Below are positions 6,041-27,074 of a stretch of DNA of 38,724 nucleotides, piece after piece. The stretch covers positions 1-38,724 of the forward strand of contig JBJFGS010000037.1 in the NCBI GenBank assembly GCA_051892935.1, given 5' to 3'. This DNA comes from Candidatus Coprovivens sp. (GTDB taxonomy: Bacteria > Bacillota_I > Bacilli_A > RF39 > UBA660). Position 1 is the first letter of the stretch, and each line of letters starts with the position of its first letter. A program made the position numbers and the translations under genes. Under the pieces are notes generated by a model that had not been told where the DNA came from, made no database searches, and saw nothing but the letters and a program-made list of their open reading frames with translations.

Positions 6041-6740
6041 TTAGTCCTCTTTCTTGTAAATTAGAAAATCTATTGTTTCTGCTTTCAACTTTTCGTACGC
6101 AAAATTTTCAAGACTAAATAACGAATTAGAGTAAAGTCTTTTCATATAAACTTTTTGTTCTTTTTCTACTAAATATATTACTAATACAAAATCCTTTTCT
6201 TCGGTAATATCAGAGTCGGCTCCAATATGATTTAAATTCAATATTGTATTTTTTACTTGTATTTCCTCAATCTTTGGTATATATTCCTTACTATAGCAGA
6301 TGATATAATTCCTTTTTGTTATGTATTCGTTATTGCTATTTTTTTCCACTTCTCTCTTAAAATGTTCTGAAATTTTTTCTATATTATTTATTTGATTTTC
6401 ATCTTTTTCAGATATTTCTGCTAAAACATAATTGGTGATAATTGTATTTGATTTTTTTTCTATTTTTTCATACATTTCTAAATTATCTACAATTTTGTGT
6501 AAGAAATTTTCTTTTTTCAATTTTTCTATTATTTTATTTATACTAATAATTCTATTTTCCATTTTTATCGATTTTTTTGAAAACATAGCAATTATTATAT
6601 TAATTAAAGCAATATCAATAATAGGTAAAATTACAACTATCATAAACATGTATATATTTTCCATCTTGCAGCTTATATATATATGCAAAATTGACTATTA
6701 ATATAAGTATTAATACTTTCAAAAAGAATTTATATCTCAT
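6041..6740 (-). pseudogene. Putative membrane-anchored immunity protein of the orphan RHS-CT, frameshifted in a (TA)n tract
   Basis: RBS AGAAGGG + ATG at 6740 gives MRYKFFLKVLILILIVNFAYIY, out of frame with the 215-aa ORF; the junction falls in TATATATATAT (6674-6684); fusion gives two hydrophobic helices. Confidence 0.7.
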
Positions 6741-6785
6741 TATTTTCCCTTCTTCGTTATTTTATAAATACAGGACAGTAATTTA

Positions 6786-8021
6786 TTAAAGGTGTATAAT
6801 TACACGTATTTGTTTTTTTATCACAGTATATGGTGTGTAGCTGCCATTTTTTATTACTGTATATGGTGTATAACTACCATTTTTTATTTTTGTTGTTTTT
6901 TTTGCGCTTTTTTTCTTGCTACTAACCTTGTTTTTTAAGTTACTGTCACCTTCTATTAATCCTCCTTTATAGTTGGATGTAGCTGTTCCTAATATAAAAT
7001 CAGCTTCTTGCTTAGCTAATTCTCTGCTTATTCCTTTATTATAAATATCATCAATCATTTGTGAATTATTAGCACTAATAAACGATAAAGGAATAGATGT
7101 TAAGTATCCCATGGCTGTTTCTTCGGTTGTTGAGATTCCTGCTTGATAACTAAAATAAGTAGTTGTGACATTAGAAGTTATATTTTCTATTACCATTTTT
7201 TCATACGGATTTATTGATGTAACTGGAACATTTTGCAATTTTACTCCAACAAATCCAGATACAGCTCCAGATAGCGCACCAACAGCCATTGCTTTTCCTA
7301 CATTTTCAAATTTTGGTCTTCCGTTAATTCCATTAGCTACTATTTGACTTAATCCATTAACTGCTGCGCCTATTAGTGCTTTAATTCCTACTTTTATAGC
7401 AATTGCTGGTAGTGCAAAGTTCCCTTTGCTATCAATTTTATCAATAAACACATTTTCGCAATAACTAAAAATATTGTTACTTATTAATTCATTTCCACCT
7501 AGTATTATATCTCCATTAATAAACCTTCCCCATTCTGGGTTGTAGTATCTACTATTTAGATAGTATAACTTGGTTTCTTCATCATAGTAATAACTTCTAT
7601 AACGGAATGGATTTATTGTACCTAGATTAATTCCACTATTATCCGTGATATTAGAGATTGCTCCCCAACTATCGTATTCATATGTTACTATTTCTTCATA
7701 GTTAGAGTTTATAATACCAATTATATCTCCAAATACATTTTTATGATAGTAATAAGTATTTCCATTATAAACGAATCCTAATAGTTCATCTCCGTTATAT
7801 AAATAGTATAACATAGTATTATTTCTATCTTCAAATACTATTTTATTACCTTCTAAATAATATTTTGTTTCAATGTTATTAACTACTTTTGATGTACGAA
7901 TACCATTTAAATTATATTTATAACTTATATTATTTGATGAATCTTGATATGAAGATAGTTCTCTACCATTCATCCAAGTTAAAGTTTTATTTCCAATTGT
8001 TAATGGATTACCAATATTATC
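6786..8021 (-). pseudogene. Orphan RHS core + C-terminal toxin module (toxin family unknown)
   Basis: NPFRYRSYYYDEETKLYYLNSRYYNP core, IDSKGN cleavage-site-like motif, Gly/Ala-rich hydrophobic segment; no credible start (the GTG at 8039 lies inside a terminator). Confidence 0.85.
7509..8021. repeat. RHS core direct repeat, copy 1
   Basis: Near-identical to 9416-9928 (I count 3 mismatches over 7509-7988, more divergent after that). Confidence 0.95.
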
Positions 8022-8024
8022 ATC

Positions 8025-8059
8025 AAAAAAATAGAACACGTTTTTACACGCATTCTATT
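8025..8059 (-). terminator. Intrinsic terminator between immunity gene 1 and the orphan module
   Basis: Minus strand AATAGAATGCGT-loop-ACGTGTTCTATT followed by a T run. Confidence 0.75.
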
Positions 8060-8091
8060 AACACAATATATCATTTTTTTAACAATTTTTT

Positions 8092-8769
8092 CTATTCATC
8101 ACCAACATATGTAAGTGTATCTCTATGTCTTTTTGTGTCTGATTTCTTTACAGGATTTTTTTGTATACTTGCCAAGTATTCTTCAGTCATCAATCTAGCA
8201 TTTCTATGAATAAAATTCTGTTTAGCAGAAAACTCATAGTCAAATGCCGGACTTTTTTTAAGATTAAATGCTTCGTAACTTGTAATCATCGAATTAATAA
8301 ATCTTTCTTTTGATAAAAATCCTCTTAAAATATTTAAATAATTTTCAGGAATAAATTCATTTTCTGGAGGAATTAAATCAAAATTTCCCAAATAAATCAA
8401 TTCTTCACAAAAATCTTTTGTTTTTCTTGGAGATAATTCAACTAATTCTATAGTATATATAAATATCATCTTAAATTTGTTCATATACTTTTCTAATTCT
8501 TTTACTTTTTCTGGAGAAATAAAACTACTCCATTCTTCATACCAAAAAAAGAAGGGTTTAACATATTCTAAGGCATTAATAGTTTCTTCATTTATTTGTT
8601 CAGGTAAAAAATTTGCAATTTTAATCCTTACAACATCATGATAATCTCCATTTTCTACTTTTTTTTCGTCAATCTTATTAATTATTAAATATTTACCATC
8701 ATAATTTTTATTCTCAAAAATAATTTTTAAAGCATAAGTATCTCCATTATTCATTTTTAGATGTTTCAA
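8092..8769 (-). CDS. Putative immunity protein for the GIY-YIG RHS toxin
   Basis: Overlaps the toxin 3' end; AGGAGG 8 nt before the TTG start; call is positional only. Confidence 0.65.
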   Translation of the reverse strand: MKHLKMNNGDTYALKIIFENKNYDGKYLIINKIDEKKVENGDYHDVVRIKIANFLPEQINEETINALEYVKPFFFWYEEWSSFISPEKVKELEKYMNKFKMIFIYTIELVELSPRKTKDFCEELIYLGNFDLIPPENEFIPENYLNILRGFLSKERFINSMITSYEAFNLKKSPAFDYEFSAKQNFIHRNARLMTEEYLASIQKNPVKKSDTKRHRDTLTYVGDE

Positions 8770-11700
8770 TTGGCCATCCTCCTACATAATATTCTTCATA
8801 ATAAATATTCCATGAAGCTAACATATATTCATCATATCTTTTATTCTTGATTCCAATTCCATTAATTTGATTGTTCAATGGATTCGATTTATTCAATGTG
8901 CTATATTCTATTATCAATCGTTGTTCTAAACCTCTAGCTTCTTCATATGTCAAGCAAGTTTGCAAACCTTTATCCATAACAAGAGAACTTCTTTTAGATG
9001 CTAAATGTTGACTTTCTCTCAATTCTAAATTTGTTGTTCTACCAACATACATTGTTTTTTTAGTTACTGGTTCTTTCAACGTATAAACATAATGGCATTG
9101 GGAATTCGAAGATTTCTTCTTTTTATTAGCTTTTTTAGTTTTAGATGCAGCATATACTACTGCACCAGTTATAGCAACTGCTGCCAAATATGGTGCTGCT
9201 GCACTTAATGCAGAACTCGCTGCTGTTGCAAGACTACTTCCATAAGCCTTAGCTGCACCGATTCCAGTAGCCACCACATCTCTTACTTTTCCCCAATCGA
9301 GCCAATCTAATGCACCAGCGTTATGTCCATTTGGATCAACACACATAATGTAATTATTACTAACATATTGAAAAAGATTTCCGGAGACAACATCTTTATT
9401 AGCTAACAATATTGAATCTCCATTAATAAATCTTCCCCATTCTGGGTTGTAGTATCTACTATTTAGATAGTATAACTTGGTTTCTTCATCATAGTAATAA
9501 CTTCTATAACGGAATGGATTTATTGTACCTAGATTAATTCCACTATTATCCGTGATATTAGAGATTGCTCCCCAACTATCGTATTCATATGTTACTATTT
9601 CTTCATAGTTAGAGTTTATAATACCAATTATATCTCCAAATACATTTTTATGATAGTAATAAGTATTTCCATTATAAACGAATCCTAATAGTTCATCTCC
9701 GTTATATAAATAGTATAACATAGTATTATTTCTATCTTCAAATACTATTTTATTACCTTCTAAATAATATTTTGTTTCAATGTTATTAACTACTTTTGAT
9801 GTACGAATACCATTTAAATTGTATTTATAACTTATATTATTTGATGATTCTTGATATGAAGATAGTTCTCTACCATTCATCCAAGTTAAAGTTTTGTTTC
9901 CTATACTTAATGGGTTTCCAATGTTATCGTATGTAATTGTTTCATTATTAAATTTAGTTAATAAATCTTGCCAATTACTATTCTCATATGAATATGTATT
10001 TTCTGATAATAATGTAGTCGTATTATACGTATAAACTTTCTTACTTAGTATATTTCCATAATTATCATATAAATATTCAATTGTTTGATTATTAACTAAA
10101 TTATGTTCTTTAATTAACTGAGAATGTTCATCATAAAAGTATTTATTAACAACAGAATTATCTTTTTTAACTTCTGTTATATTACCTAACTTATCATACT
10201 TATATGAATAATTTATACCATTATCATTTACATTATTTAATACTGCAGAAGTTTTCTTACCATTAGTTATATAACTATAAGTTGTTTTATAATTATTATT
10301 AATATTACTTTCTATAAGTCTTCCTAAGTTATCATAAATATAATTGAAATTGTTATTTAAGATATTTAAGTTGGTTAACGATGATTCTTGATTATAAGAA
10401 TAATTATATAAATATGAATAATTACCTAATTCTTCTTTTTTATCGGTAACATTATTTTCACTATCATAGTTATATGATGATTTATAATTATTGAATTTAT
10501 ATTTGCTAATTCTATTAGCAAAATCATATTCATAATTATAATTATCATTATTAGAAGTTAATTTAACTATTCTGCCTAGATTATCGTAATAATTTTTATA
10601 TACATCATTTGTTTTGGTAATTGTCTTGATTCTATCAAATTCATCATATGTATAGTTTACTTCATGATTATTACCGTATTTTATTTTAGTTAAATTACCA
10701 TTATTATTTTCGTAAAAATTTTCTACTAAGTTAGTATTATTTATATTAACTTTTTTATTATTATTAAAGTTATCATATTCAAAGGTATAGTTTTTAGTAC
10801 CATGAGTTATTTTAGATAAGTTATTATTACTATACTCATATGATACGTTATGTTCTCCCTTACTAATATTACTAACTCTAAACTTACTATCGTAAGTATA
10901 GTTGGTAGTATTATCTAGTGGATCAGTAATACTATTTGTTACTTCATTAGTACTATTTATATCGTAAGTAGTAACATTACCTAAACTATCTTTTACTGAT
11001 TTTATAAATCTACCATCATTAGTATATTCAGCACTACTTTCAATAAATAAACTGTTTTCCATTCTTTCAAATAAGAAGTGTTGTGATTCGTTGTTTTCAT
11101 TGTATGTAGTTAAAGATAATGTATTGTCTTCATTTACTGTTACTGATAGTTCATTTGATTTTATGGAGTATGTCTTATCAGAATGTTCGATAAGTTCAAA
11201 TATGTTATTGTTGTCTCCATATTCTATTTTTAAAACTCCACCATTGTCTTTTAAATAATAGTTTTTTAAAACTGTATATTGGAGTTTTATTTTAGAATCT
11301 GGTTGTTTAATAACATTGAACTTATCATGTGAACATTCACATTGTCTTACCATTAAATTTTTATCTGGTTTAATATATAGATAACAATCTGTACCTTTAG
11401 CTCTTATATAATAAGTAGTATCTATTATTTCATCAAATGCTTGAGTATTATTTATAATTGTTTTAATAGGATTATTATTACTATCATAATCAATACTATT
11501 TGTAATACCTGTAGGAGATATAGCTCTTATTAATCTATCAGTTACATTTTCATCATATTCATATTTAAACTTTTTACCTAATGGTGAAATAGCTTCTATT
11601 AATTGATTATTACCATCATAATTAAATGTAGATGTTTCTCTGGATAAATCAGTACTTGAAACTAAGTTTCCTTCATCATCATAGACATAAGAATAACTTT

Positions 11701-14404
11701 CTAAATCTTTGAATATAGATATATTTGTAATATAACAATCTCTACAACTAAATAAATCATTAATATTCAAAGAGATACTATTAAAATCGTATTTAGCTAC
11801 GTATTTTTTAGAAAAATAATGCCAATCTTTATTATATTCTGTTAAATAATCATCTTCTCCATAGCCTTCCCATTCACCATCAACATAATCAAAATATATA
11901 TATCCTGCTATATTGGCTGGTTCTTCTATACTATCTACAGGAGGAATTATTTTTGGTCCTTCATTTTTATACCAGAATGATAATTCAAAGACATCTCCTG
12001 CTTTACCATTTACATTGAAATGTTTAGCTATAGTAGTTTGAATCAATGGATTATTATTTAACTTCAGAGCTTTTATATTATCTATTGTGACAACTTCAGC
12101 TCTAGGTGTTGTTTCTTCAGATTCATAGTTCCATTGTCTTCCTGTTCTTTTATAAGAAGAAATTTCATATCCCGTTGTTCCATTGTTAAAGTTACTATTA
12201 CTTATCATGTTATAGTAATTAGCAACTTCTCCCTCTTCTAACTGAATGGCATCTATCCATATATTACCAATACCTAATGGGGTAATCTTAACTACTAAAT
12301 TAGAAGTTGCTGATTCAGGATAATTAATAGTAACATCATATCTACTATATTTATTATTTATATCATTTATAATAGTTTTTTCTTCTACTGAATCATATGA
12401 TAAAGATATTTCTAAAGGAATATCATTCTTAATATAAGTACTAAATGTATAATATTTTTCTTTGTCTACTTGTTTAGATAAACTAATATAACTATTTAAT
12501 GCTGTATTTGAAATTTTTAATGACTTTAGTCCGTAATGTCCTTCATTTAATACAGATGAAGTAATATTACTATTTGAAGATGTAAATGGATTAGTTCTAT
12601 CTTCAAAAGATGAATTGTCTATTAAGTTATTAACATGCTTAACTAAACTTCCATCTAAAGTTACTTTATTTACCGATGATGTACCTACTTCCCCATAAAC
12701 AGAAGTCTTTCCGTAAGCATTAGTTAGATCATTATTACTATCTATATTAGTAATTACTTCTGTATTAGCATTATTATTAAATACATAAGTATTAACATGT
12801 CCTTTTCTATCTTTAATACTAGTAGATTTTAAGTTATAAGTAAATTCTAAGTAATTACCTTCACTATTATCTTTACCATATTCTATAACTTTAGATACTC
12901 TATAAGTCTTATTATTTATATACTCATACTTAGTATATAAACCATTAGAATTAATAATCTTCTCTATTAAGTTATTACTATTATAAGTAATTGTTGTTAT
13001 ATCTTCTAAATCTTCTATACTAGTTACTAAATTATTAGTTATATTAACTATTGTAGTTTTATAAGGACTTATAAAACTAATTTTATTAGCTTCATAAGTA
13101 ATATTTATTTCATCATTAGATGCATCTATTACTTTGTTTATTCTATTATTAGTATCATATATAATTTGAATTGTTTTATCTGAAGTATCTTTTATTTCTT
13201 CTAAATAATAAGTACCACTATGATTAACATATTTATTAGTATTTTTATCTTTATCAGTCATTATATAGTTATTATCAATTAATTCTACTTTTAATGATAA
13301 ACCATCTTCATCATAATAAATATTATCAGTAGATTTATAAAAATAATGAATAGTTCCATCTTCATCTGTATATTCAAGTACTTCTATATCATCAATTGTA
13401 ACTTCTTTTATAGTTTGTATTAAATTAGGTTTTATTCCTAACCCATAACCATAATTACTACCTAGTACTTTATCTGCAGTATTATATACAAGATATAATC
13501 CAACTGGTAATGGTCCACCTATTGTATTTGCAACATCAAAGGTGCTGGTTAAATTACCATTATAATTATTAATATGACTAGAACCTAATTCATGACTTTG
13601 TGATGTATAAGTTAAATAACTTTCTAATCCATTTAAGTTTTTATAATTAATTACTAATCCAGGTTGCGGATTCCCTGTTTCTGTCTCAGCATTCTTAGTA
13701 TAATATTCACCTATTTTTACATTTGCATTATAGATTTCATCAACAGCTTTTAACATTAAACCATAATTAGGTTCATTATTATACCATCTCTGTACTAAGT
13801 CTGTAACATCTACTTTAGATACTTTACTATTTATTGTAAGTATATCTCCTGAAATTGTCCCAGATGATCTTGTACTATGAAAGTAATTTTCTATATTAGT
13901 ATTATATTTATTATTCATAGATGACCAAGTAGTACTATTTTCAGACCAATCTTGTGTTAGTTGATGTATTGAAATTAAGGTATTTGAATCACTTTCATTA
14001 TAGTTTTCATCATAATAACCAATAAGGTTTAATGTAGCATCAACTATTGTATAACTTGAAGGAATAGTTGGTAAATCGAATTTTAAGAGTGCACGATGTA
14101 TTACATCTGTTCCATTAATTCTTTCTACTCCTATTTTTATTTTATCTTCTTCTCCAGTATTAGTACCATTTGATGATATATAGGTATCTGTTATATAAAA
14201 AGGATTATTATTTCCTGTTATAGCACCCATACCGGCAGTATTATTTGATTCTCCCGGTGTTAAAGTCGGTTCATCAGATAAGAGCATTATTTGATTATTA
14301 TTAATTATTTCATCATATATTTCTATCTGAATAGTCCCATCTTTTTTTAAATATGTTTTTGAATTCGGAGTTTGATATTCTGTTAATTCTATTCGCTTGT
14401 CCAT
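8747..14404 (-). CDS. RHS/YD-repeat polymorphic toxin 1 (DNRLRE/CBM96-like, two CBM-like domains, beta-trefoil-like insert, RHS core, GIY-YIG nuclease CT)
   Basis: DTYISS...RALLKFDLP...VTDLVQRWY; NLIDNSSFE...IQLEEG; YD repeats; RHS core; VDPNG; CT HYVY...YVGRT...R...ARGLEQ...N; no signal peptide. Confidence 0.9.
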   Translation of the reverse strand: MDKRIELTEYQTPNSKTYLKKDGTIQIEIYDEIINNNQIMLLSDEPTLTPGESNNTAGMGAITGNNNPFYITDTYISSNGTNTGEEDKIKIGVERINGTDVIHRALLKFDLPTIPSSYTIVDATLNLIGYYDENYNESDSNTLISIHQLTQDWSENSTTWSSMNNKYNTNIENYFHSTRSSGTISGDILTINSKVSKVDVTDLVQRWYNNEPNYGLMLKAVDEIYNANVKIGEYYTKNAETETGNPQPGLVINYKNLNGLESYLTYTSQSHELGSSHINNYNGNLTSTFDVANTIGGPLPVGLYLVYNTADKVLGSNYGYGLGIKPNLIQTIKEVTIDDIEVLEYTDEDGTIHYFYKSTDNIYYDEDGLSLKVELIDNNYIMTDKDKNTNKYVNHSGTYYLEEIKDTSDKTIQIIYDTNNRINKVIDASNDEINITYEANKISFISPYKTTIVNITNNLVTSIEDLEDITTITYNSNNLIEKIINSNGLYTKYEYINNKTYRVSKVIEYGKDNSEGNYLEFTYNLKSTSIKDRKGHVNTYVFNNNANTEVITNIDSNNDLTNAYGKTSVYGEVGTSSVNKVTLDGSLVKHVNNLIDNSSFEDRTNPFTSSNSNITSSVLNEGHYGLKSLKISNTALNSYISLSKQVDKEKYYTFSTYIKNDIPLEISLSYDSVEEKTIINDINNKYSRYDVTINYPESATSNLVVKITPLGIGNIWIDAIQLEEGEVANYYNMISNSNFNNGTTGYEISSYKRTGRQWNYESEETTPRAEVVTIDNIKALKLNNNPLIQTTIAKHFNVNGKAGDVFELSFWYKNEGPKIIPPVDSIEEPANIAGYIYFDYVDGEWEGYGEDDYLTEYNKDWHYFSKKYVAKYDFNSISLNINDLFSCRDCYITNISIFKDLESYSYVYDDEGNLVSSTDLSRETSTFNYDGNNQLIEAISPLGKKFKYEYDENVTDRLIRAISPTGITNSIDYDSNNNPIKTIINNTQAFDEIIDTTYYIRAKGTDCYLYIKPDKNLMVRQCECSHDKFNVIKQPDSKIKLQYTVLKNYYLKDNGGVLKIEYGDNNNIFELIEHSDKTYSIKSNELSVTVNEDNTLSLTTYNENNESQHFLFERMENSLFIESSAEYTNDGRFIKSVKDSLGNVTTYDINSTNEVTNSITDPLDNTTNYTYDSKFRVSNISKGEHNVSYEYSNNNLSKITHGTKNYTFEYDNFNNNKKVNINNTNLVENFYENNNGNLTKIKYGNNHEVNYTYDEFDRIKTITKTNDVYKNYYDNLGRIVKLTSNNDNYNYEYDFANRISKYKFNNYKSSYNYDSENNVTDKKEELGNYSYLYNYSYNQESSLTNLNILNNNFNYIYDNLGRLIESNINNNYKTTYSYITNGKKTSAVLNNVNDNGINYSYKYDKLGNITEVKKDNSVVNKYFYDEHSQLIKEHNLVNNQTIEYLYDNYGNILSKKVYTYNTTTLLSENTYSYENSNWQDLLTKFNNETITYDNIGNPLSIGNKTLTWMNGRELSSYQESSNNISYKYNLNGIRTSKVVNNIETKYYLEGNKIVFEDRNNTMLYYLYNGDELLGFVYNGNTYYYHKNVFGDIIGIINSNYEEIVTYEYDSWGAISNITDNSGINLGTINPFRYRSYYYDEETKLYYLNSRYYNPEWGRFINGDSILLANKDVVSGNLFQYVSNNYIMCVDPNGHNAGALDWLDWGKVRDVVATGIGAAKAYGSSLATAASSALSAAAPYLAAVAITGAVVYAASKTKKANKKKKSSNSQCHYVYTLKEPVTKKTMYVGRTTNLELRESQHLASKRSSLVMDKGLQTCLTYEEARGLEQRLIIEYSTLNKSNPLNNQINGIGIKNKRYDEYMLASWNIYYEEYYVGGWPIETSKNE
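9416..9928. repeat. RHS core direct repeat, copy 2
   Basis: Matches 7509-8021. Confidence 0.95.
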
Positions 14405-14412
14405 AGAATCAC

Positions 14413-15099: not shown

Positions 15100-15280
15100 A
15101 TTATTTTACCTCTTTCTTTTTCTCTATAATTTATGTTTAAATTAATTTGTTCTTTTTTACTTTCACCTACTTCCACAAGATACTTTCATATCTCTAAGTT
15201 GAGAATAATGGCGAATTGTAAAAAAAGCTATCGCTTATTTAGCGAAAAAGATTCGCTCAAATGGCGAATCTCTTTTAAAT
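15085..15280 (-). repeat. Cassette upstream repeat A, copy 1 (leader with tandem palindromes)
   Basis: Near-identical to 23358-23552; contains TCGC-N7-GCGA at 15231-15245 and 15253-15267, plus an AGAGG RBS. Confidence 0.9.
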
Positions 15281-15349
15281 ATTAATCTATTTGGGCGATA
15301 ATTTATAATAACAAGTGCAACGCTTAATTAATTCATATAAAAAAAATCG

Positions 15350-15511
15350 CTTACTGCGCCTTCATAAAAAGCACAATAAGCGACATTTAGTATTACATGA
15401 TTATTAATAAATATTTTCAAATGTATATTATTAATGACAAGACCTCTTTCTGTCGTGCTATACAAAACACTATCTTGTCTTAACATTAATATACATTTTT
15501 AATTTTTTTAT
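15350..15511 (-). repeat. Non-coding repeat B, copy 2, ending in a terminator hairpin + T run on the minus strand
   Basis: Similar to 5827-5986; minus strand TCGCTTATTGTGCTT-loop-AAGGCGCAGTAAGCGA-T8. Confidence 0.85.
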
Positions 15512-15513
15512 GT

Positions 15514-15538
15514 TGTCTACCATTTGGGGTTCACATCA
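15514..15538. mobile_element. Isolated IS3-family (IS150/IS861-like) terminal inverted repeat
   Basis: Reverse complement TGATGTGAACCCCAAATGGTAGACA resembles IS861-type ends as I recall them (TGAACTGCACCCCAAAAGTTAGACA); no transposase in the window. Confidence 0.55.
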
Positions 15539-15583
15539 AAATTAGCGATTTTTTTACAATACATTGAAAAAATATCATTTTTT

Positions 15584-16414: not shown

Positions 16415-19400
16415 TTATTTCCATTTAAATAATTTAGATATTTTTCTAGCAATATCTATGACTTGCTTTTTGCAATTTGGATTACCTGCTGCTATAATTT
16501 CATTTAATTTTTTAGTCATTTGCTTAGCTGTCTGGGATTTACTAACTACTTCTACTAACTTGTTTTTACCAAATCTTGCTTTTCCTATAACATCAGGGCG
16601 TTTAGTTCCTACTAATCCTGCAGCACTTAATGGTTTGTCCAAATATATTTCTTTATATTTTATAGGATTTAATGACATTGAACCTGCTGAAACATTTGAT
16701 GCAAATCTGTGAAGAGCCGTTCCTGTTGCTTGCGCATCTCCTACTACCTTAACTACTCCTGTTTTTATGCCTATAGATGACACAACTGCTCCTGTAACTC
16801 CTCCTGCAAATGATTCTATCGCTGCTCCACTAAGTACTCCATCTACAACATTTTCTCCTTTTTTAGAAGCATTTACTCCACCTGCTACTCCCCCAATAAC
16901 TGCTCCTGCAGATGCACCAATAAATGCTGCTCCTGCTACTACTCCTGCTGGGCCTGTTAGAGTTGCGGCAGCTACTGCAGCTACTCCAATACATGTAGCT
17001 ACTGCAGCTACTTTTACTACTTTTTTCACAATTCTAGATAGTTTCGGTAATTTTGGCCAGTCACCGTCTTCATCAACAAGTGTAATTGGATTATTAAATG
17101 CATATTGATAATTATTGTAACTTAATACTTTTTCTTTAGCGCCGACGTTTTCATCAGCAGTTAAAAATCTTCCTAATTTTGGGCTATAATATCTGGAGTT
17201 TAAATAATATAAATCAGTTTCATTATCATAGTAATACGATCTATATCTAAATGGATTCATGGTTCCTAAGTTAACGTTACTATTATCCACCATTTTTGTT
17301 ATATTTCCCCAAGAGTCGTATTCGTACGTTACTATTTCATTATAATTTGTATCTATTATTCCGACAATGTCTCCTAATATATTTTTATGATAATAATAAA
17401 TATTATTATTTAATGTTAATCCTAATAAATCTCCTTCTAAATCATATATATATATATAACATAGTTCCATCTCTATTTTCAAATATTATCAAATCATCTT
17501 CTAGATAATATTTTGTTTCTATGTTATTTACTTTTTTAGAAGTTCTAATTCCTTTAACATCATAATTAAATTCTATTATGTTATTATTATCAATGTATGA
17601 TGATAACTCATGACCATTAATCCATGTTAAACTTTTATTTCCAATGGTCAATGGATTTCCAATTGAGTCGTAAGTTATGTTATCATCATTATATTTCATT
17701 AATAAATCGTTCAAATTATTATTATATTCATATTTATCCTCTTTTATTAAAAGTTCATCATTAATGTTATAAACTTTCTTTGATAACAAATTTCCGTAAT
17801 AATCATATGAATAACTTTTAATTTGATTATTAATATAATCTTCTTCTTTTATTAATTGAGAATTATTATCATAATAATACTTATTCGTTAACTCCCCATT
17901 TTTTCTAATTTCTGTAATATTATCAAGTTTATCATATTCATATGTATATTCTATTCCGTTATCTTCAATTTTATCTATAGTTGTAGAGGTTTTATTTCCT
18001 TTCGTAATATAATGATACTTTGTTCTTAAGTTGTTATTTATGTTTTTTTCTGAAAGTCTACCTGGACTGTCATATAAATAGTTGAATGAATTACTTAAAA
18101 TACTGATTTTAGTCAAAGTTAAATCATCATTATAATCATAATCATAAGTATAATTTCTTAGTCCTAACTCTTGAATTTTTTTAATAATAATATTATCTTT
18201 TCTATAATCATATTTTGATATAAATTCATTAAAACTATACTTACTTATTCTTTGTGCAAAATCATATTCATAATTGTAAATATCGTTATTGGATGTTGAT
18301 TTTACTATTCTACTTAAATTATCGTAGAAATTAGTAAATGTATTGTTTCCTTTAATTATTTTTTTTACTCTGTCAAACTCATCATAAGTGTAACTGATAA
18401 TATTATTATTACCATATGTTATTTTTTTTAAATTGCCATTATTTGATTCAAATTCTTTATTTATAATAATATTATTATTTAACTTTGTTATATTATTGTT
18501 ATTAAACTCATCATATTCGAAAGTATAAGACTTATTTCCATGGCTAATTGTTGAAAGATTATTGTCATCATCATATTCATAAGTAACTATGTGATTTCCT
18601 TGTTCTACTTTTGTCATTTGTAAATTATCATCGTACATATACGTAGTTATGTCACCATTGGGATTACTCAAACTTTGGATTAATCCGTTTACCGGATTTA
18701 TATCATAAATTATTTCATTATCCAATGAGTCTTTAACACTTTTTATAAATTTACCATCATTTGTATAAGTCGCATAGCTTTCTATATACATTTTATCGTT
18801 GGATTGTTCAAAGAAGAACTCTTGGCGATAATCTTCACTATTGTAGTCCGATAAGATAATATTAAAAGTATCTGTTAAAGTTAATACTTTTTGTTGCTCA
18901 TCTTCACTTTGGGCTAATGCTATGGAATAACTATTATTTAAATTTGATATTAATTCAAATTCATTATTATTATCGCCATACTGAAGTTTTACTTCGCCAT
19001 TATGAACTTTAACAAAGTAATTATTTAAAATTGCATGTTTAATTTTTACTTTGTTTTCATCGTCTTTTATAATGTAAAATTTATCATAAGAACACTCTGA
19101 TTCTTTCATTCTAATGGTTTTATCTGTATTTATAAAGAAATACTTATTTGTTCCTTTAGCCCTTATCAAATATTTTACCTCATTATTTATTTCTGCCAAT
19201 GTTCTTTTATTTGTTACTTTTGTTGATAAAACATTTCCATTATTATCATATTTTATAGAACTCGTTACTCCGGAAGGTGAAAAGGCTCCAATAATTCTAT
19301 CATTTACGTTATTATCATATTCAAAAGTATAATTATTTCCAAGAGGATCTGTCATTCCAATTATTTGATTACTATTATCGTATTTTAAACTGCTTTTCTC

Positions 19401-22400
19401 TTTATTCAAATCAACACTAGAAATAAGATTCCCGTTTTCATCATAATCATATGAATATGCTTCTAAATCTTTGAATAGAGAAAAATTCGTATAATAACAA
19501 TCGTTCGCTCCACCAAAATTATTGATATTTATCTCTAAATAATCATAATCCCATTCTGCTTGAAAATTTTCCGAAAAAAACTGCCAATTATCTGATCCAA
19601 CATTTAAGTATTTTGCAGGAACACACGCTCCAAATTCCATACCATCATTATATCCAAAGAAAATTGTTGCCCAACAACCTGGCATAAGACCTTCTCCACC
19701 ACTCGGATAAATTCCAGAATTTTTGTACCAAAATGATAGATTATATGTATCACCAGCTTTTCCTTTTACGTTAAACCTTTTATCGACTGTTATGCTACCA
19801 ATTGGTTCTGAATGAACCTTCAGTGCTTTTACTCCACAAGACAATTCTTTAATTTCGGCGTATTCTGTTGTCGACCCCGAATCTATAGTCCAGCCACTGG
19901 TTCCTTTTTTAAAACTACTATTATCTACCATATTATAATAATTAGCTACATCTCCTTCTTCCAACTGGATATCATCAAGATATAAACTTATAGGACTTTC
20001 ATCAACATTTTGAATTGTTAATTTAAGGTTATCTGTTGCTTCTGCAATATATTCTATCGTAACTGAGTATCTAACGAAATCATTTGTCAGTTTAGTAATA
20101 TGGGTTACGGCTCTTGTATCATCGTATGATAAAATAAAATCTAAACATAAATCTTCGCTACTTTCAACTAGAGATGTTCCTCTTATATATCCACTGAATG
20201 TATAAGTTTTACCTTTTGGAACTACAAATTCTTTATATATATATCCTCCACCTCTAGGTATCCCAATTTCTAGAGATTTTAAACCACTTCTTGATTCTGC
20301 AGTACTTGTTGTGTTTGTAGAATTAATATCTCCATTTGTAAATCTCATGGATTCCTCGCCTTCAAAAGAAGAATCGTCAATTAGATTATCTATATAGTTA
20401 ATTAAAGAATTGTCAGATATTATTTTATTAGAAGTACCTTCATCTTCATTACCAAATACATATGATTTTCCATAAGCTTGGTTTAAATTATCATTTTCAT
20501 CGATGCTAGTTATTCCAATAAGGTTCCCATAACTATTAAAAATATATGTATTTACATGTCCTTCATTATCAACAATTTTTGTATCTTCTAAGTTATAGCT
20601 AAATACTAAATAATTACCTTCATTTCCTAATTTGCTTATTTCAGAAACTTTTTTTATTCTGAAAGAGATTTGATTAATATATTCGTATTTTATTGCTAGT
20701 CCATTCGAATTAACAATTTTATCTATTAGATTATTATCATTATATATGATATTTTCTGTTATTCCTAGCGAACTAATTTTTGTAATTAAATTATTCTCTA
20801 AATGAACTATTGTTTCTAGATGTGGACTTACAAAAGTTATTTTATTATCGTTATAAGTAACGATTATTTCTTGATTAAGCCCATCAATAACTTTTGTAAT
20901 CCTATTTTGAGTATCATATGTTATTGTTATTTTTTTACCATCAACATTTTGTATTTCCTCTAAATAATATATTTCTCCGTCATTGTGTTTCACAAATTTA
21001 CTTATATTTTTGGCTTTATCAGTCATTACATAATGCTCATCTTTAAATTCAACTGATAAATCTAGTCCATCTTCATCAAAATATTCATTGGAATATGAAA
21101 TTTCCTCATTTTCAGAGTCATTTATTTTTCTATAGAAATAATGTATTGTACCATCTTCATCTGTATATTTTAGTAATTCTTGTTCTTCTATTATTTCTTT
21201 TACTAAAGTTTGTATTAAGCTTGGCTTAATACCTAATCCGTATCCATAGTCATTGTTGAGCTCGACATCGGTTGTATTGTAAACTAAATATAAATTTGCA
21301 GGTAGCCCTCCACCTACTGTATTGGCTACATCATATGTAATCGTAAGATTTCCTGTATAATTATTAATACTTGCTTCACCAAAATTATGTTCTTGAGTTG
21401 TATATGACAAATACGATTCGATACCATTAAAATTTTTATACGTGATGGAAATCAGTGGTTTTGAATAACTAGTATCGTTATAATCTTTCGAAACATAAAA
21501 TGCAGGTCTACTATTATCCGTTACCTCTTCATTATATTCTTTTAGCATTATTCCATAGTTTGGCTCTCCATTATACCATTTTTGAACTAAACTAGTTATA
21601 TTAAATATATCTTTATAATCATCTCCAGGTTCTTGATGAAACGAATCCATTCTATTAGCATAGCAATAATCTTCTATATTACTTGAGTAATTGTTACTCA
21701 TATTTTCCCATTTGGCGCTGCTTTCGTTCCAATTTTGAGTCAGTTTGTGTACTGAAATCATCGGAACTTTATTTTGGTATGCTAAACCAAATTCATCTGG
21801 ATAACAAGACATAACGACACTAGCGTCAACCACCTTGTATCCAGCAGGTATTTTAGGTAATTCAAATTTTAATAATCCTCTGTATATCACATTACTTTTA
21901 TCGGTACCTACGTATAAATATGGCTGATTATATGTAGTACTATTTTCATCACCATCAAAAATATATGTGTCTATTACACTAGAACTTGATTGTACATTTG
22001 TAATTGTTGGATCAATTACTACAGGATAACTTCTACTCTTATCATTTAACCATTCTTTATCTATATCAATTATTAATTCGTATCCATAAATTGTTTTTTC
22101 TAGTTCATATTTTATAGATTCAGAATAAACATTTTTGCTATCAAACATATATGGTTTTTCTATTTTGAAGCACTCTATTTCGTTGTCCATAAAACTTATT
22201 GTATTATCTTCGTTTAAAACCAATCTCAAATTGGTGTTTATATTATAATTAAATCTTTTTTTTGAAGTATTATTTTTTAAAATAATAGATTCTTTCAATT
22301 GATTAGATAGAACTTGATATTTTAGATCTGTATTTATATATATTTCTTCATAAATTATCGAATTAGATGAGTTATTTTGTAATAATTTTTCTTGATTGCA

Positions 22401-22697
22401 ATTACCAATTACAGTGTTATCCGTTTCTTTTGGAATCAATGATAACTTTTTATTTTTATAAGAGATATTAATTTGCAGTGGTTGATTGTTGTCATTAAAT
22501 TCTATTTTAAAGTCATTATCTTTATTTTTATAACCTCTAGGTGTTTTCTCTAAAGAATTATTAATTTCCTTATATTCTCCTTTATCTAAATAATAGATTG
22601 GTTCTTTAAATAATTCAATTTGTATGGTACCATCATGATTTAGAAAACGCTTACTATTAGCAGTTCTAAATTCTTTTAATTCTTTTCTTTTTTTCAT
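16415..22697 (-). pseudogene. RHS/YD-repeat polymorphic toxin 2 (about 2094 aa if joined), split by a frameshift in a (TA)n tract; PD-(D/E)xK-like nuclease CT
   Basis: ORF 17442-22697 is a collinear paralogue of toxin 1; ORF 16415-17482 carries the RHS core, VDEDG, a hydrophobic segment and RPDV...VEVVSKSQ; junction in (AT)7A at 17444-17458. Confidence 0.88.
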
Positions 22698-22709
22698 ATT
22701 TTTACTCCG

Positions 22710-23372: not shown

Positions 23373-23552
23373 ATTATTTTACCTCTTTCTTTTTTTATAA
23401 TTTATGTTTAAATTAGTTTATTCTTTTTTACCTTCACCTACTTCCACAAGATACTTTTCATATCTCTAAGTTGAGAATAATGGCGAATTGTAAAAAAAAC
23501 TATCGCTTATTTGGCGAAAAAGATTCGCTCGAATGGCGAATCTCTTTTAAAT
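23358..23552 (-). repeat. Cassette upstream repeat A, copy 2
   Basis: Matches 15085-15280; palindromes at 23503-23517 and 23525-23539. Confidence 0.9.
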
Positions 23553-23558
23553 TCTAAG

Positions 23559-24512
23559 TTATTTTAAATATTTAGAAATTACCCAAGCTTCTGAATCTGG
23601 TGATATTTTTGACCAACCAAATCTTATACCATATACTTTTACCTTTGTTCCATTTTTCAAACACGCTATTGGTTTGTTACTTTTTTTTGTATTACGTTTT
23701 TTTCTAACATTCAGTCCTTCTTCGTCTGCTCCAGTTATAGTCTTCAGTTTAGGCTGTTTTTTTGATAAATAAGTCGAATAAACATATTTACAATCTCCTA
23801 AATAAGCTCTTCCATCTAAAATTTTTATAACTTTAACTACTGACCCAATAGGTAATAATTCCACAACTTCATTATTTTTAAGTGACCTAACATTTAATCC
23901 CTCGTAATCGACATTGTCTACATACATAATCGTTCTATTTGTAGCAGTTTCCACTTCATCTAATTCCTTGTCAGAATAATCTGGTCTACCATATCCATCT
24001 ATCGATGAAGCATTTAATCGATATTTTTTTGTTCGAACACATCCGCCATTGGATACAACACCTTTTGCACTACTGGTGTTACCTTCAATAGTGTATACAT
24101 ACGTGGCATCTATCTTATATACGAGTCCTGTGTGACAAATTTTATTGTTTTTCTTAAAAAATATTTGATCACCGATTTCTGGACTCTTATGGTATTGATT
24201 TTTTTGGGCATAAAAACTTTTAGAAAAACTTACTCCGGCACCTGTTGATTTATCTGGTTGACATAGTAATTCTTATGCTCTTTTTACTCCAAAAGTTTGA
24301 ACGAAACACCAATCAACAAAAACATCACACCATGAAAAGCTTTGCTTTCTACCATTATAGAAATTCTTTACTTTATCTAAATCTCTAGCATATTTTGTAA
24401 AATTATTTTTACCAGGATTTGCTGTTTTATCATCTAAATAATCGTTACTATTCTTTTCCAAGTACCCTTCTTCATCAAGTGCAATTTCGATTAACTTTTT
24501 TACTGTACTCAT
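23559..24512 (-). pseudogene. CHAP + two SH3b-like domain endolysin with one in-frame TAA
   Basis: The 79-aa and 131-aa ORFs share a frame; reading through TAA 24273-24275 gives WCDVFV...ELLCQP...GDQIFF...HTGLV...TIEGNT...GYGRP, then two LNVR-type repeats (318 codons in total). Confidence 0.85.
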
Positions 24513-24853
24513 TGCTTTTGACCTTCGTCTTTCTTCTTATCCTTTTTTATATTGTTACATGAAGATTCTATCATTACCTCTAATTCTAAATCTGTTATTG
24601 TTATTTTCTTTTCAGTAAGTAAATTTAGTATATTCTCTTTTGCTATATCGTGTTTTTCAATGCTAGATTTATCACTATGTAATTGTTCAACATATTTCAC
24701 TGTATCTTCTATTATATTTTTTTTGATACTATCATTTACATGTTTTTCATATAAGGTCTTTACTCTTAATCCAACATAAGTTAATACTGTTGTTATTATC
24801 GTATATAATAATTCATTTCCGTATGTTGTTATAAATTCTTTTATTAACTCCAT
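24509..24853 (-). CDS. Phage holin, LL-H family
   Basis: Single N-terminal hydrophobic helix, VKYVEQ...EK...IESS pattern, ATGA overlap with the endolysin. Confidence 0.8.
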   Translation of the reverse strand: MELIKEFITTYGNELLYTIITTVLTYVGLRVKTLYEKHVNDSIKKNIIEDTVKYVEQLHSDKSSIEKHDIAKENILNLLTEKKITITDLELEVMIESSCNNIKKDKKKDEGQKQ

Positions 24854-24877
24854 TTTCTACTACTTCCTTTTCTGTTA

Positions 24878-25618
24878 TTACCATGTTCCACTCCAAGTTG
24901 CTTCCGCACTTGAAATAGTATCGTATTTATCTACTATGCTAGCTTCTAATTCAAGCTTATCTAAATCCATAACATATTTTTTTGAATTAGCTAACGATAC
25001 GCTACTTGTAGCATGTGCATAATCGCCGTTTATTGTTTGATTTATAATTGTATATTGAGTATTTTTTTCTACATCAAAATAAAAAGTTTGATCTAGTTGA
25101 ACCAAATCTCCAGTTGGAACTTTAAACGATGTTCCTGCACCATTTGTAAAAATTTTAGGATAATTTGTAGTTGTAGTTGTACATCCTCCATTTGAAACAC
25201 AATATGTTTGACTAAAATGAGTATCTCCTTTTACTTTTACTGATGTTTGAAAACCGATTCCTATAATGTCATAACTTCTTACTTTTGGTATATTCTTCCA
25301 GACTAATCTATTTTTATATCGATAGTAATTTCCATTAGCAGTTATTGTTGCAGTCATCTTCTTATAAGTTGTTTCGATAGTTGTTGAGCTATTAGTTCTT
25401 AATAGTACATCGCTGTTATTATATTCTTCTTCTGTTATTTCAGTTGTTGTTGATATAGAGTTGTTATTTAAACTATAAGTGTTAGCTGTTCCTAGAAATG
25501 TTGCTGTTTTGTAATATTTTGTTGTTTCTGCTAAAACTAATTCTGTTTCAGCTTTTGAAATTTTAGGAAATACTAAAATTCCTAGCATCATAAAAAAAAT
25601 AAATAAACTATGTTTCAT
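24878..25618 (-). CDS. Secreted hypothetical protein (Thr/Ser-rich, probably beta-rich)
   Basis: Signal peptide MKHSLFIFFMMLGILVFPKISKA; AAGGAGG RBS. Confidence 0.7.
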   Translation of the reverse strand: MKHSLFIFFMMLGILVFPKISKAETELVLAETTKYYKTATFLGTANTYSLNNNSISTTTEITEEEYNNSDVLLRTNSSTTIETTYKKMTATITANGNYYRYKNRLVWKNIPKVRSYDIIGIGFQTSVKVKGDTHFSQTYCVSNGGCTTTTTNYPKIFTNGAGTSFKVPTGDLVQLDQTFYFDVEKNTQYTIINQTINGDYAHATSSVSLANSKKYVMDLDKLELEASIVDKYDTISSAEATWSGTW

Positions 25619-25642
25619 ATTTTACCTCCTTTCTTGATAATA

Positions 25643-25708
25643 ATTATATGAATGAGTTTGTTTATTATAAATCGCTTATTTGGCGAAAAAAATTCGCTCA
25701 AATAGCGA
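25643..25708 (-). promoter_or_regulatory. Sigma-A-like promoter with tandem TCGC-N7-GCGA palindromes just upstream of the -35
   Basis: Minus strand TTTATA-17 bp-TATAAT; palindromes at 25672-25686 and 25694-25708. Confidence 0.55.
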
Positions 25709-25714
25709 ATTTCT

Positions 25715-26449
25715 TTATTTTACGTGTAAGATATGACTAGTTTTTTCGTTTGTATTTTTATCTGAATACTCAACTTTTATTTTTAATTTATTCTTCATTG
25801 AATATTCTATTTCTTTACTTTCTATAAATATTGATACATTTTTTAGTGCATCACTTAATAAAATTTCTTCCCTATATTCTACACGTCTAGAACTAACTAA
25901 TTTATCTTCATAAAAAATAGATATTTCTATTTTATTTACAATTGGTTCCATAGTTGTTCCTAGTTTCTCGTCTTTATATATGAAGTTATTAAATAAGATT
26001 ATTGTTTCTTTTTGATTGTAAACAACAAAACCATCGAAATCAAAAATTTTATTTGTTAAACTTTGAACATTTTCCGTGTGCCATTCATTGTATTTTATAA
26101 TTCCAAATGTTATTGAAAATATAAATATTAAGGAAGTTATTATAATTGAAGCTATTTTTAAATTCCTCTTTTGAGTTTGTTTTGTATAATATTTTAAACT
26201 TTTCAATGCTATTTCATCTTGAACAAATTCATTGTCTTTATTTTTCTTTCCTTCTAAAAGTTCTGTTACTGTAACTCCTAATATGGTACTTAATTCTTTT
26301 AACACTGTTATGTCTGGTGCATACCTTCCATTTTCCCATTTTGAAATAATTCTATTGTCTATGCTTAGTATTTCACCTAGTTCTTTTTGTGTTAATCCTT
26401 TTTTCTTTCTTAGTTCGGCTATAAATTTTCCAATTGAATCTAATTGCAT
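25715..26449 (-). CDS. XRE-family HTH regulator with one TM helix and a probable extracellular domain
   Basis: IGKFIAELRKKKGLTQKELG...ISKWENG...PD; hydrophobic IASIIITSLIFIFSITFGII. Confidence 0.85.
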   Translation of the reverse strand: MQLDSIGKFIAELRKKKGLTQKELGEILSIDNRIISKWENGRYAPDITVLKELSTILGVTVTELLEGKKNKDNEFVQDEIALKSLKYYTKQTQKRNLKIASIIITSLIFIFSITFGIIKYNEWHTENVQSLTNKIFDFDGFVVYNQKETIILFNNFIYKDEKLGTTMEPIVNKIEISIFYEDKLVSSRRVEYREEILLSDALKNVSIFIESKEIEYSMKNKLKIKVEYSDKNTNEKTSHILHVK

Positions 26450-26630
26450 ATAATCACCTTTACTTTTAAACTACCACATTTTTTTAAAATTCAAAGGTCT
26501 CTTTTTTTTATACAGCTGATTCAATCGGTATTTTTCCCTGTAATTTAGAGAGTTTAACACGAATACTCTATTTCCCCTAAATTACATTTTTGGGGATTTT
26601 TCAATGAAATAATTATTTCAGGTGAATGAA

Positions 26631-27074
26631 ATGATTGTTAATAAATTTAAGGCTATTCGTGAATACGAATTAAATATGACTCAAATAGAACTTGCTAAAA
26701 TTTTAGGTGTTCATTCCTCTACAATATCTGGATGGGAAAATAGAAAAGATTGGATTCCTATTAAAAGATTAATCGAATTTGCTAATTTATTTAATTATAG
26801 TTTAGATTATCTTTTTGGCTTAGTACCTAAGAATGTTCCGTTTGATAAAATACATGTAGATTTGCCCAGTTTAGCTAAAAATCTTAAGACTTTAAGAATT
26901 ATGAATAATATGACACAAGAACAAGTTGCAGATAAACTAAATACTAATCAAAATAATTACACTCATTACGAAACTGGAATTAATATTATTCCTACAAGTT
27001 TTCTATATGATTTAACAAAAATATATAAGCCTTTTTCAATTGACGAATTATTTAATAGAAAAAGAATTAAGTAG
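26631..27074 (+). CDS. Tandem two-domain XRE-family HTH regulator
   Basis: MTQIELAKILG...ISGWENR and MTQEQVADKL...YTHYETG; ATG 26631 preferred (AGGTGA upstream) over GTG 26622. Confidence 0.85.
   Translation: MIVNKFKAIREYELNMTQIELAKILGVHSSTISGWENRKDWIPIKRLIEFANLFNYSLDYLFGLVPKNVPFDKIHVDLPSLAKNLKTLRIMNNMTQEQVADKLNTNQNNYTHYETGINIIPTSFLYDLTKIYKPFSIDELFNRKRIK

Follow-up and report, generated by a model that had tools for sequence, protein, structure and literature searches.

A module of uncultured gut Bacilli that pairs leaderless RHS toxin genes with a phage fibre-like gene and, frequently, a lysis cassette

The 38,724-nucleotide contig JBJFGS010000037.1 of Candidatus Coprovivens sp. (assembly GCA_051892935.1; 1.81 Mb in 53 contigs, 26% G+C, 92% complete), which was analysed over its entire length (38.7 kb) and is referred to below as the window, contains a locus in which two genes coding for RHS toxins, each preceded by a gene for a phage fibre-like protein and followed by a small gene, adjoin genes coding for a holin and an endolysin. 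The recurrence of this layout in other genomes suggests that the toxins are freed by self-lysis of the producer and aimed at rivals. The interpretation favoured here, with moderate confidence, is that of a domesticated end module of a siphophage, made up of a tail-tip protein, a receptor-binding protein, a holin, and an endolysin, which would produce a lysis-released, receptor-targeted RHS bacteriocin. How leaderless RHS toxins of 200 kDa exit Gram-positive cells and arrive on their target is an open question. Even for the Sec-dependent toxin WapA, passage through the cell wall is presented as unresolved in the accessible part of a study (PMC12704120). The module provides a concrete and testable answer, with a dedicated phage lysis cassette for release and a separate phage receptor-binding protein for targeting.

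All genes of the module are located on the minus strand, from position 27074 down to position 6041, except for one divergent XRE regulator gene, which alone is on the plus strand (Table 1). In reading order, this gene is followed by genes coding for a membrane-anchored XRE regulator, a secreted protein, a holin, and a lysin, then twice by a set of a Gp10_C-type fibre gene, a DNRLRE-containing RHS gene, and a small gene, and finally by an orphan RHS core with a small gene of its own. From the membrane XRE gene onwards, this gene set had been proposed in an initial annotation made from the nucleotide sequence, and both the open reading frames (ORFs) and their domain matches bear it out. The accompanying claim that the window is devoid of capsid, terminase, tube, sheath, and integrase genes held for all ORFs scanned, as none of them matched a phage structural, terminase, or integrase family and none represented a tube, sheath, tape-measure, or baseplate gene of a tailocin or contractile injection system.

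Fibre and RHS genes form a conserved module. When contigs representing one genome per species were searched with a fibre-like protein profile, at least 507 confirmed matches were returned, and the best 80 of these were surveyed as loci, by calling their ORFs and searching them with the window proteins. Nearly all 80 loci originated from metagenome-assembled genomes of uncultured gut Bacilli, 'Tenericutes', or the Erysipelotrichaceae type. An RHS homologue of about 2,000 residues was found on the same strand and at most three genes after the fibre gene in 73 of them. Two of the seven exceptions were located at a contig edge and one concerned a truncated fibre gene, leaving four real ones (L058, L075, L078, and L079); in L058, the order was RHS, immunity, holin, lysin, and fibre. 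The RHS protein itself is a patchy accessory trait of the order, its N-terminal profile being present in 15 of 151 sampled genomes and 14 of 87 genera. 

The fibre-like protein consists of a family-specific N-terminal part of about 70 residues and a Gp10_C receptor-binding-type domain; the second copy of the window is 48% identical to the first one. Conservation in the family is highest over the first 70 or so residues and lowest in the middle of the C-terminal domain, a pattern expected of an attachment end and a receptor-binding end, respectively. In five loci (L022, L035, L044, L046, and L074), two or three tandem fibre paralogues precede a single RHS gene, which is consistent with a specificity that could be changed by swapping fibres. 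A long form of the fibre-like protein (350-430 residues) goes together with an extra gene between the fibre and RHS genes in 13 loci (L003, L009, L015, L020, L026, L028, L051, L057, L059, L065, L068, L071, and L081), coding for a predicted coiled-coil protein of about 120 residues that belongs to no known family. Two small proteins without family (about 103 and 114 residues) are encoded just upstream of the fibre gene in seven loci (L014, L027, L035, L044, L045, L046, and L053), most of which have no recognised lysis cassette. Structure prediction of a complex of three copies of fibre-like protein 2 with residues 1-260 of the second RHS protein (RHS2) gave a score of 0.00, which, being obtained without controls, is no evidence either way on binding; the AlphaFold model of the fibre monomer was poor, with a predicted local distance difference test (pLDDT) value of 52.

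Both partners look phage-derived, judging from sequence comparison. For the fibre-like protein, the profile matched the C-terminal domain of the T4 baseplate protein gp10 (2fkk/2fl8; E-value 1.5e-06), and residues 75-220, approximately, matched the antireceptor C-termini of the Lactobacillus delbrueckii phages LL-Ku, Ld3, Ld17, and Ld25A (35-37% identity). None of the 36 matching records of the phage collection stemmed from a Bacillus phage, and the receptor-binding protein of phage PBC1 was not matched. Longer relatives were mostly proteins of about 585 residues with a PF05895 domain, encoded on phage-sized contigs. In viral contigs, 79 of the 80 best matches began at residue 29 or later, mostly at residues 57-79, whereas the matches listed for bacterial genomes began at residues 1-34. 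This indicates that the N-terminal 70 residues are specific to the RHS-linked family; full-length homologues were essentially absent from viral collections. Similarly, residues 3-420 of the first RHS protein (RHS1) align collinearly with the gp018 N-terminus of the Bacillus phage PBC1 (97% coverage, 23.6% identity, E-value 3e-07), and three PBC1-related phages matched the RHS N-terminus likewise. In the PBC1 record (JQ619704), gp018 is a 'YD repeat / virion structural' protein of 1063 residues, encoded directly after the tape-measure gene. In the accessible part of a study on Bacillus cereus phages of this group (PMC9128512), the YD-repeat protein is reported to take the place of Dit, and the receptor-binding gene of PBC1 directly follows the holin gene. 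A further match to the RHS N-terminus, in MT835902 ('Bacteriophage sp.'), was set aside, as it concerned a 2178-residue ORF on an unannotated and unverified 15.7-kb contig of uninformative context.

Lysis genes are frequent neighbours of the module. Neighbour genes that had remained unlabelled were clustered, and representatives were annotated. A manual count covered the 35 evaluable loci, defined as those with a full RHS gene and with no less than 2.5 kb of upstream and 3 kb of downstream sequence. A lysin-like gene occurred near the module in 23 of them; it lay upstream of the fibre gene, up to 2 kb away, in 8 loci and downstream of the RHS gene, up to 3.5 kb away, in 15 loci. In 22 of these 23 loci, a holin-like gene was present too. 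Expressed per length of DNA, 23 lysin-like genes in about 190 kb near modules versus three in about 243 kb further upstream overstate the enrichment, as the labels were partly ascertained near modules and the loci are phylogenetically related. The hydrolases represent at least five unrelated types, namely CHAP-SH3, M23-like (phrog_9066 'endolysin'), GH25-CW_7-LysM, Amidase_2, an unassigned catalytic domain combined with SH3_3 or CW_7, and Peptidase_M23 with PG_binding_1. The M23-like group was present in 27 loci, its label being based on the PHROG matches of one representative. The holins are diverse too, comprising LL-H, Phage_holin_4_1, Hol44-like, phrog_1299, phrog_199, and XhlA-like types, along with small membrane proteins of two families. 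The distance from the lysin stop codon to the start of the fibre gene is 5-70 nucleotides in at least ten loci. The lysis genes were intact in most loci, and the long genes flanking the modules were housekeeping genes, such as those for IleRS and HtpG. In a second sample, consisting of ten RHS-bearing genomes of the order, the M23-like lysin as query gave 11 matches, four of which were located within about 5 kb of an RHS gene, in three genomes; in a fourth genome, the RHS-immunity pair was immediately followed by genes for a phrog_199 holin and a Peptidase_M23/PG_binding_1 protein. Lysis genes were thus found near RHS genes in four of the ten genomes and not recognised in the other six, three of which correspond to contigs L032, L059, and L081, so that the two samples overlap. 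The initial annotation would have been refuted by homologous RHS cassettes that usually lack holin/lysin neighbours, but such neighbours were encountered often in both samples and belonged to several unrelated lysis gene families, an adjacent lysis cassette of some kind accompanying roughly half to two-thirds of the modules.

In the window, the end of the holin gene overlaps the start of the lysin gene by four nucleotides, and the latter is interrupted by an in-frame stop codon (TAA, 24273-24275). Among the 80 loci, only the two closest ones, L004 and L007, contain homologues of the holin and lysin of the window, and the lysin is uninterrupted in both. The L004 protein (317 residues, 97% identical) has a glutamine at the site of the stop codon, and contigs from four out of four public gut metagenome runs, each from a different study, have a G at position 24275, resulting in CAA instead of TAA. 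This indicates that the stop codon is private to this assembly or strain. The runs contained 0.38-0.40 of the sampled words, and the RHS part was poorly covered, as expected for a polymorphic region. Stop codons were found in two other RHS-adjacent lysin matches as well (TAA in G118:C1:116444-116941 and TAG in G148:C3:195528-195911), and the three cases could represent recurrent inactivation of a costly lysis gene. The presumed CHAP-SH3 architecture of the lysin was partly retrieved with Pfam, which recognised SH3_3; the CHAP domain was supported by a protein-atlas look-up of the intact L004 homologue, 26 of whose 30 nearest named clusters were CHAP proteins, and not by a phmmer search of this homologue against PDB sequences, which gave no match.

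The lysis unit and the two fibre-RHS units share a leader element, composed of a 19-nucleotide palindrome (ATTCGCYN5RGCGAAT) and, after it, a second, small hairpin, each followed by a T-run. Its pattern matched three times in the window and never in 100 shuffled versions, and the three copies align with one another. They are the only sites in the 1.81-Mb genome and precede the lysis unit and both fibre-RHS units, indicating that these three units have a common, locus-specific control element. L004 carries the leader at the two corresponding junctions; among 163 loci, the exact palindrome was restricted to the window and L004, and the more distant loci L007, L013, L036, and L043 showed AT-rich noise instead of a comparable repeated leader. 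The RNA fold of the second copy had a z-score of -3.76, and a search of the window against Rfam yielded no RNA family. The element could be an XRE operator or a terminator/antiterminator leader.

The foremost alternative, considered unlikely, is that the fibre, RHS, and immunity genes are a 'moron' carried as prophage cargo behind the lysis cassette of a temperate phage, in which case the lysis genes would be leftovers or the phage's own, with no dedicated role in release, and the toxin would exit otherwise or upon phage lysis. Prophages of Gram-positive bacteria classically carry cargo in the slot behind the lysin gene, and every lysis gene found here is of phage type. Genes coding for a fibre-like protein of 630-650 residues and other long genes are located upstream of the holin-lysin-fibre-RHS array in L017, L024, L029, and L049, which may be true prophage tails, and a KilA-N gene adjoins the module in G081. 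The stop codons in the lysin genes of the window, G118, and G148 and the 12 evaluable loci without lysis gene would fit such cargo too. However, the window and most loci contain a compact unit of regulator, lysis, fibre, and RHS genes that is flanked by housekeeping genes and in which capsid, terminase, and tail genes were not detected. Had prophages decayed independently, precisely the lysis genes would have had to survive each time, across many lineages and at two different positions. The intactness of these genes in most loci, the short distance between the lysin and fibre genes in at least ten of them, the near absence of full-length fibre homologues from viral collections, and the leader element common to lysis and toxin units argue against cargo as well. 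For the window in particular, its housekeeping flanks, the intact lysin in L004, L007, and the four metagenome runs, and the common leader indicate that the lysis genes are not debris of an adjacent prophage.

The RHS proteins have the make-up of polymorphic toxins of the RHS/YD type, with shell-forming repeats (PF05593, E-values 2.2e-27 and 3e-22; TIGR01643), a core followed by a variable C-terminus, adjacent candidate immunity genes, and an orphan module. The TIGR03696 core was present in the second frame of RHS1, in RHS2, and in the orphan, and all three C-termini differ. The last 141 residues of RHS2 matched PF01541 (GIY-YIG; E-value 6.8e-07, above the cut-off), and the first 210 residues, approximately, of the orphan are near-identical to the RHS2 core. 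RHS1 is broken into frames of 1751 and 355 residues within a (TA)7 run (17444-17458), which the metagenome contigs cover thinly; the break may be real, phase-variable, or an assembly error. These three are the only RHS genes in the genome. A small gene directly downstream of each of them is a candidate immunity gene; homologues of candidate immunity protein 2 are encoded after RHS genes whose C-terminus is the same in L003, L014, L019 (1e-36), L045, L046, and L074. A glycine/alanine-rich hydrophobic stretch, noticed by eye after the RHS core motif and before all three toxin domains (minus strand, 8900-9300, 16700-17050, and 7100-7400), may aid membrane passage in the target. In the model of residues 1-260 of RHS2 (pLDDT 77), the DNRLRE domain forms a beta-sandwich, the nearest solved structures being polysaccharide-binding modules (8wab and 7vbo).

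None of these proteins shows a recognisable export signal. As presumed in the initial annotation, signal peptides were lacking: upon inspection, not by means of a signal-peptide predictor, the N-termini were hydrophilic and without hydrophobic leader in all 24 aligned RHS proteins. Equally in line with it, domain scans retrieved no PAAR, LXG, or WXG domain in either RHS protein, nor did they reveal LysM or other wall-anchor domains. Holin and hydrolase genes in the locus and a leaderless cargo are the gene-level features of type 10 secretion-like release, and all are present here.

Conventional export, via a type VIIb or unrecognised exporter, with the fibre-like protein as a chaperone or adaptor and lysis genes that remodel the wall locally or are unrelated, is judged improbable. 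The genome does contain two full-length EssC genes (967 and 912 bits versus a cut-off of 778) and ten WXG100 matches, five of which are above the cut-off; many modules do without lysis genes; and a table in the accessible part of PMC3482391 lists RHS-containing toxins among the exports of type VII systems in Firmicutes. Yet, neither RHS protein possesses an LXG or WXG domain, their modelled N-termini are predicted to be rich in beta-strands instead of helical hairpins, the EssC and WXG100 genes are located on other contigs (C14 and C24), and the RHS N-terminus has its homologue in a phage virion protein. A tail-mounted toxin, with the RHS and fibre-like proteins as spare tip parts for the tail of a tailocin or helper phage whose genes lie elsewhere, would agree with the collinearity of the N-terminal 420 residues of the RHS protein with the post-tape-measure protein of PBC1-type phages and with the kinship of the fibre-like protein to baseplate and antireceptor tips, but is hardly probable, considering that the neighbourhood of the module, in the window and in most of the 80 loci, is free of tail, tube, and tape-measure genes, that the window holin, lysin, and fibre-like protein have no homologue elsewhere in the genome, and that the identity of the RHS protein to the phage protein amounts to only 23.6%.

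For the domesticated end module, the following course of events can be envisaged. The RHS proteins, of about 2,000 residues and without export signal, would be made in the cytoplasm, and their N-terminal region, related to phage YD-repeat tail-tip proteins and containing domains of a carbohydrate-binding type, would serve as a platform for the small, presumably trimeric fibre-like protein. The latter would attach through its N-terminal 70 residues, approximately, whereas its variable, gp10/antireceptor-like C-terminal domain would bind a receptor on the cell wall of a rival. Local regulators would control the holin and the endolysin, which would open the producer, probably in a subpopulation, and free the toxin. 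The RHS shell would then deliver its polymorphic C-terminal toxin (a GIY-YIG nuclease in the case of RHS2), possibly aided by the glycine/alanine-rich hydrophobic stretch, and the adjacent immunity proteins would protect kin. More specifically, it may tentatively be proposed that the product is a tail-less 'phage-tip toxin', in which a trimeric receptor-binding protein is docked via its N-terminus on the tip region of a leaderless RHS protein, and which, as a soluble bacteriocin freed by altruistic lysis, could be widespread in uncultured gut Bacilli.

Several observations weigh against this interpretation. Firstly, 12 of the 35 evaluable loci and six of the ten genomes of the order have no recognised lysis gene, indicating that the cassette is not obligatory, is located further off, or escapes recognition. 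The idea of a domesticated fibre-holin-lysin end module, as put forward initially, is partly supported, by the phage ancestry of both partners and the recurrent lysis neighbours; roughly a third to half of the modules have no recognised lysis gene in their vicinity. In addition, the Amidase_2 and unassigned-domain lysin types were annotated only near modules, which, together with the other biases mentioned, inflates the enrichment. Secondly, in L058, L078, and L079, the fibre gene is located beside lysis genes without an RHS gene after it, and the lysis genes of L017, L024, L029, and L049 are preceded by long genes, large fibre-like ones among them, that may be true prophage tails. Thirdly, the lysin gene of the window carries a stop codon and RHS1 a frameshift, and the lysin matches of G118 and G148 contain stop codons as well, which could reflect decay. 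Fourthly, no fibre-RHS fusion was encountered among the best 120 of the 241 longer relatives of the fibre-like protein (proteins of at most 2000 residues). Lastly, the two EssC genes provide the genome with another potential route of export.

The regulatory genes of the window (Table 1) recur elsewhere. Membrane XRE homologues were found near fibre-RHS modules in many of the 80 loci, and the membrane XRE and secreted-protein genes were adjacent in 11 of these, upstream or downstream of the module (L004, L007, L012, L013, L016, L032, L036, L038, L043, L047, and L062), with a divergent XRE gene of about 150 codons beside the pair in L004, L012, L016, L043, and L047. The secreted protein had no match in Pfam, NCBIfam, or PHROG, and the protein atlas returned only unnamed Bacillota clusters. 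A protein of about 160 residues, of which only sigma-70 region 4 was recognised (Pfam, E-value 6.4e-07), is encoded directly before the fibre gene in about nine loci (L009, L011, L020, L023, L048, L051, L065, L069, and L078) and after the downstream lysin gene in several others. It scored below all NCBIfam cut-offs, without assignment to a sigma subfamily, and is a possible dedicated transcription factor. 

On one side, the locus is flanked by genes for a TRAM/U5-type RNA methyltransferase, the gerA operon, and the IleRS gene (34971-38090). The latter gene also occurs at or near the module in L026, L028, L059, L068, and L170, suggesting a preferred insertion region in this lineage. On the other side, a defence islet (1409-5356) encodes an AbiEi/AbiEii pair and an N6 DNA methyltransferase-containing protein of 819 residues. 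A TraG/VirB4-type ATPase gene and a gene for a protein of about 550 residues are located a few genes upstream of the module in L016, L047, L051, L054, and L069, so that some copies of the module may ride on conjugative elements.

Table 1. Features of the fibre-RHS-lysis locus in the window, in reading order (HTH, helix-turn-helix; aa, amino acids; nt, nucleotides).
Feature	Position	Strand	Basis
Two-HTH XRE regulator, divergent, 150 aa	26622..27074	+	HTH_3 1.4e-25, two stretches
Membrane-anchored XRE regulator, 244 aa	25715..26449	-	HTH_3 7.3e-16; one hydrophobic span past residue ~95, by eye
Dual-hairpin leader element, copy 1	25665..25715 (palindrome 25692-25710)	-	Upstream of secreted-protein/holin/lysin unit
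Secreted protein, no known family, 246 aa	24878..25618	-	Signal-like N-terminus, by eye
Holin, LL-H type, 114 aa	24509..24853	-	PF09682 8.1e-12, 45.9 bits versus cut-off 24.9
Endolysin, CHAP-like N-terminal domain and SH3_3	23559..24512	-	SH3_3 2.6e-08 (Pfam); one in-frame TAA, 24273-24275
Dual-hairpin leader element, copy 2	23495..23546 (palindrome 23523-23541)	-	Between lysin gene and fibre gene 1
Fibre-like protein 1, 220 aa	22710..23372	-	PF21939 1.8e-14, 55.3 bits versus cut-off 27
RHS toxin 1, two frames (17442-22697; 16415-17482)	16415..22697	-	DNRLRE 2.7e-22, RHS_repeat 2.2e-27, Rhs_assc_core 5.7e-19
Candidate immunity protein 1, 272 aa	15584..16402	-	Position, 12 nt past RHS1; no family match
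Strong terminator-like hairpin	15346-15384		Near leader copy 3
Dual-hairpin leader element, copy 3	15225..15275 (palindrome 15251-15269)	-	Upstream of fibre gene 2
Fibre-like protein 2, 228 aa	14413..15099	-	PF21939 5.8e-11, 43.9 bits versus cut-off 27
RHS toxin 2, intact, 1885 aa, GIY-YIG nuclease C-terminus	8747..14404	-	DNRLRE 1.3e-26, YD repeats, Rhs_assc_core 8.6e-17
Candidate immunity protein 2, 225 aa	8092..8769	-	Overlaps RHS2 end
Orphan RHS core fragment, different C-terminal toxin, 417 aa	6786..8039	-	Rhs_assc_core 7.5e-15
Candidate immunity protein 3, 215 aa	6041..6688	-	Position only; no family match

If the proposed mechanism is true, holin/endolysin-assisted release extends from Tc and clostridial glucosylating toxins to interbacterial polymorphic toxins, a phage tail-tip module has been domesticated without a tail, and a previously unrecognised, widespread delivery route for polymorphic toxins exists in uncultured gut Bacilli. 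The module is spread patchily among small-genome Bacilli of animal guts and may shape competition in gut communities. In addition, its modular design of fibre, toxin, and immunity proteins might find use in targeted antibacterials.

Among the known systems, the Tc toxins of Yersinia entomophaga are freed by lysis of a specialised subpopulation, as reported in the accessible parts of PMC10847048 and PMC10847046. As far as described there, they resemble the present RHS proteins in that a holin/endolysin cassette of phage origin adjoins the gene for a very large leaderless toxin with an RHS-type cocoon (type 10 secretion). They differ in their Gram-negative producer, their insect target, the pentameric TcA component that binds and translocates, and the spanin in their cassette. 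In contrast, the large proteins encoded in the window displayed only RHS and DNRLRE domains, without TcA, SpvB-type, or mid-N components, and no TcA-like large gene was present. The partner is instead a phage fibre-tip protein of 220 residues, the host appears to be a low-G+C, spore-forming member of the gut Bacilli (as indicated by its ger genes), and the polymorphic toxins and immunity genes indicate bacterial targets. [quoted passage not shown] Likewise on the basis of these portions, it shares with the module a Gram-positive host and large leaderless toxins encoded next to a holin gene, an endolysin-derived gene, and a regulator of their own, but its glucosylating toxins act on host cells, and RHS repeats, a fibre-like partner, and immunity genes do not form part of it. 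The sigma-like protein encoded upstream of the fibre gene in several loci recalls TcdR, although it matches region 4 only and falls below the family cut-offs.

WapA-type RHS proteins of Bacillus and Streptococcus suis have a Sec signal peptide and wall-anchoring LysM repeats, and S. suis makes use of a SecF-like protein and a sortase, as stated in the part of PMC12704120 that is accessible. They, too, are RHS polymorphic toxins of Gram-positive bacteria in which the DNRLRE domain is N-terminal and the C-terminal toxin varies, and they come with immunity genes and orphan modules. Unlike WapA, the RHS proteins of the window lack a signal peptide and LysM repeats and are paired with fibre and lysis genes. 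The 'organization C' siphophages of B. cereus, of which PBC1 is an example, possess a homologous YD-repeat N-terminus and a receptor-binding gene interleaved with holin and endolysin genes, as far as their published description is available; however, the PBC1 protein is a 1063-residue virion protein encoded behind the tape-measure gene in a complete phage, without annotated toxin/immunity pair. Colicins combine a nuclease-type toxin with a cognate immunity protein, have no dedicated exporter, are released by a lysis protein from part of the population, and bind receptors on relatives of the producer. They are small, plasmid-borne, and carry receptor, translocation, and toxin domains on a single chain, whereas here the toxin is predicted to be caged in an RHS shell, the receptor binder would be a separate protein of phage type, and release would use a full holin/endolysin pair. 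In the accessible part of a survey of polymorphic toxins from 2012 (PMC3482391), the word holin does not occur and lysis is mentioned only for colicins. Within the literature covered, which did not include subscription journals, no RHS toxin has been described that is accompanied by both a lysis cassette and a fibre gene of the Gp10_C type. The module would represent a new variation on holin/lysin-assisted toxin release, with an RHS protein as cargo and a phage fibre-like protein as partner.

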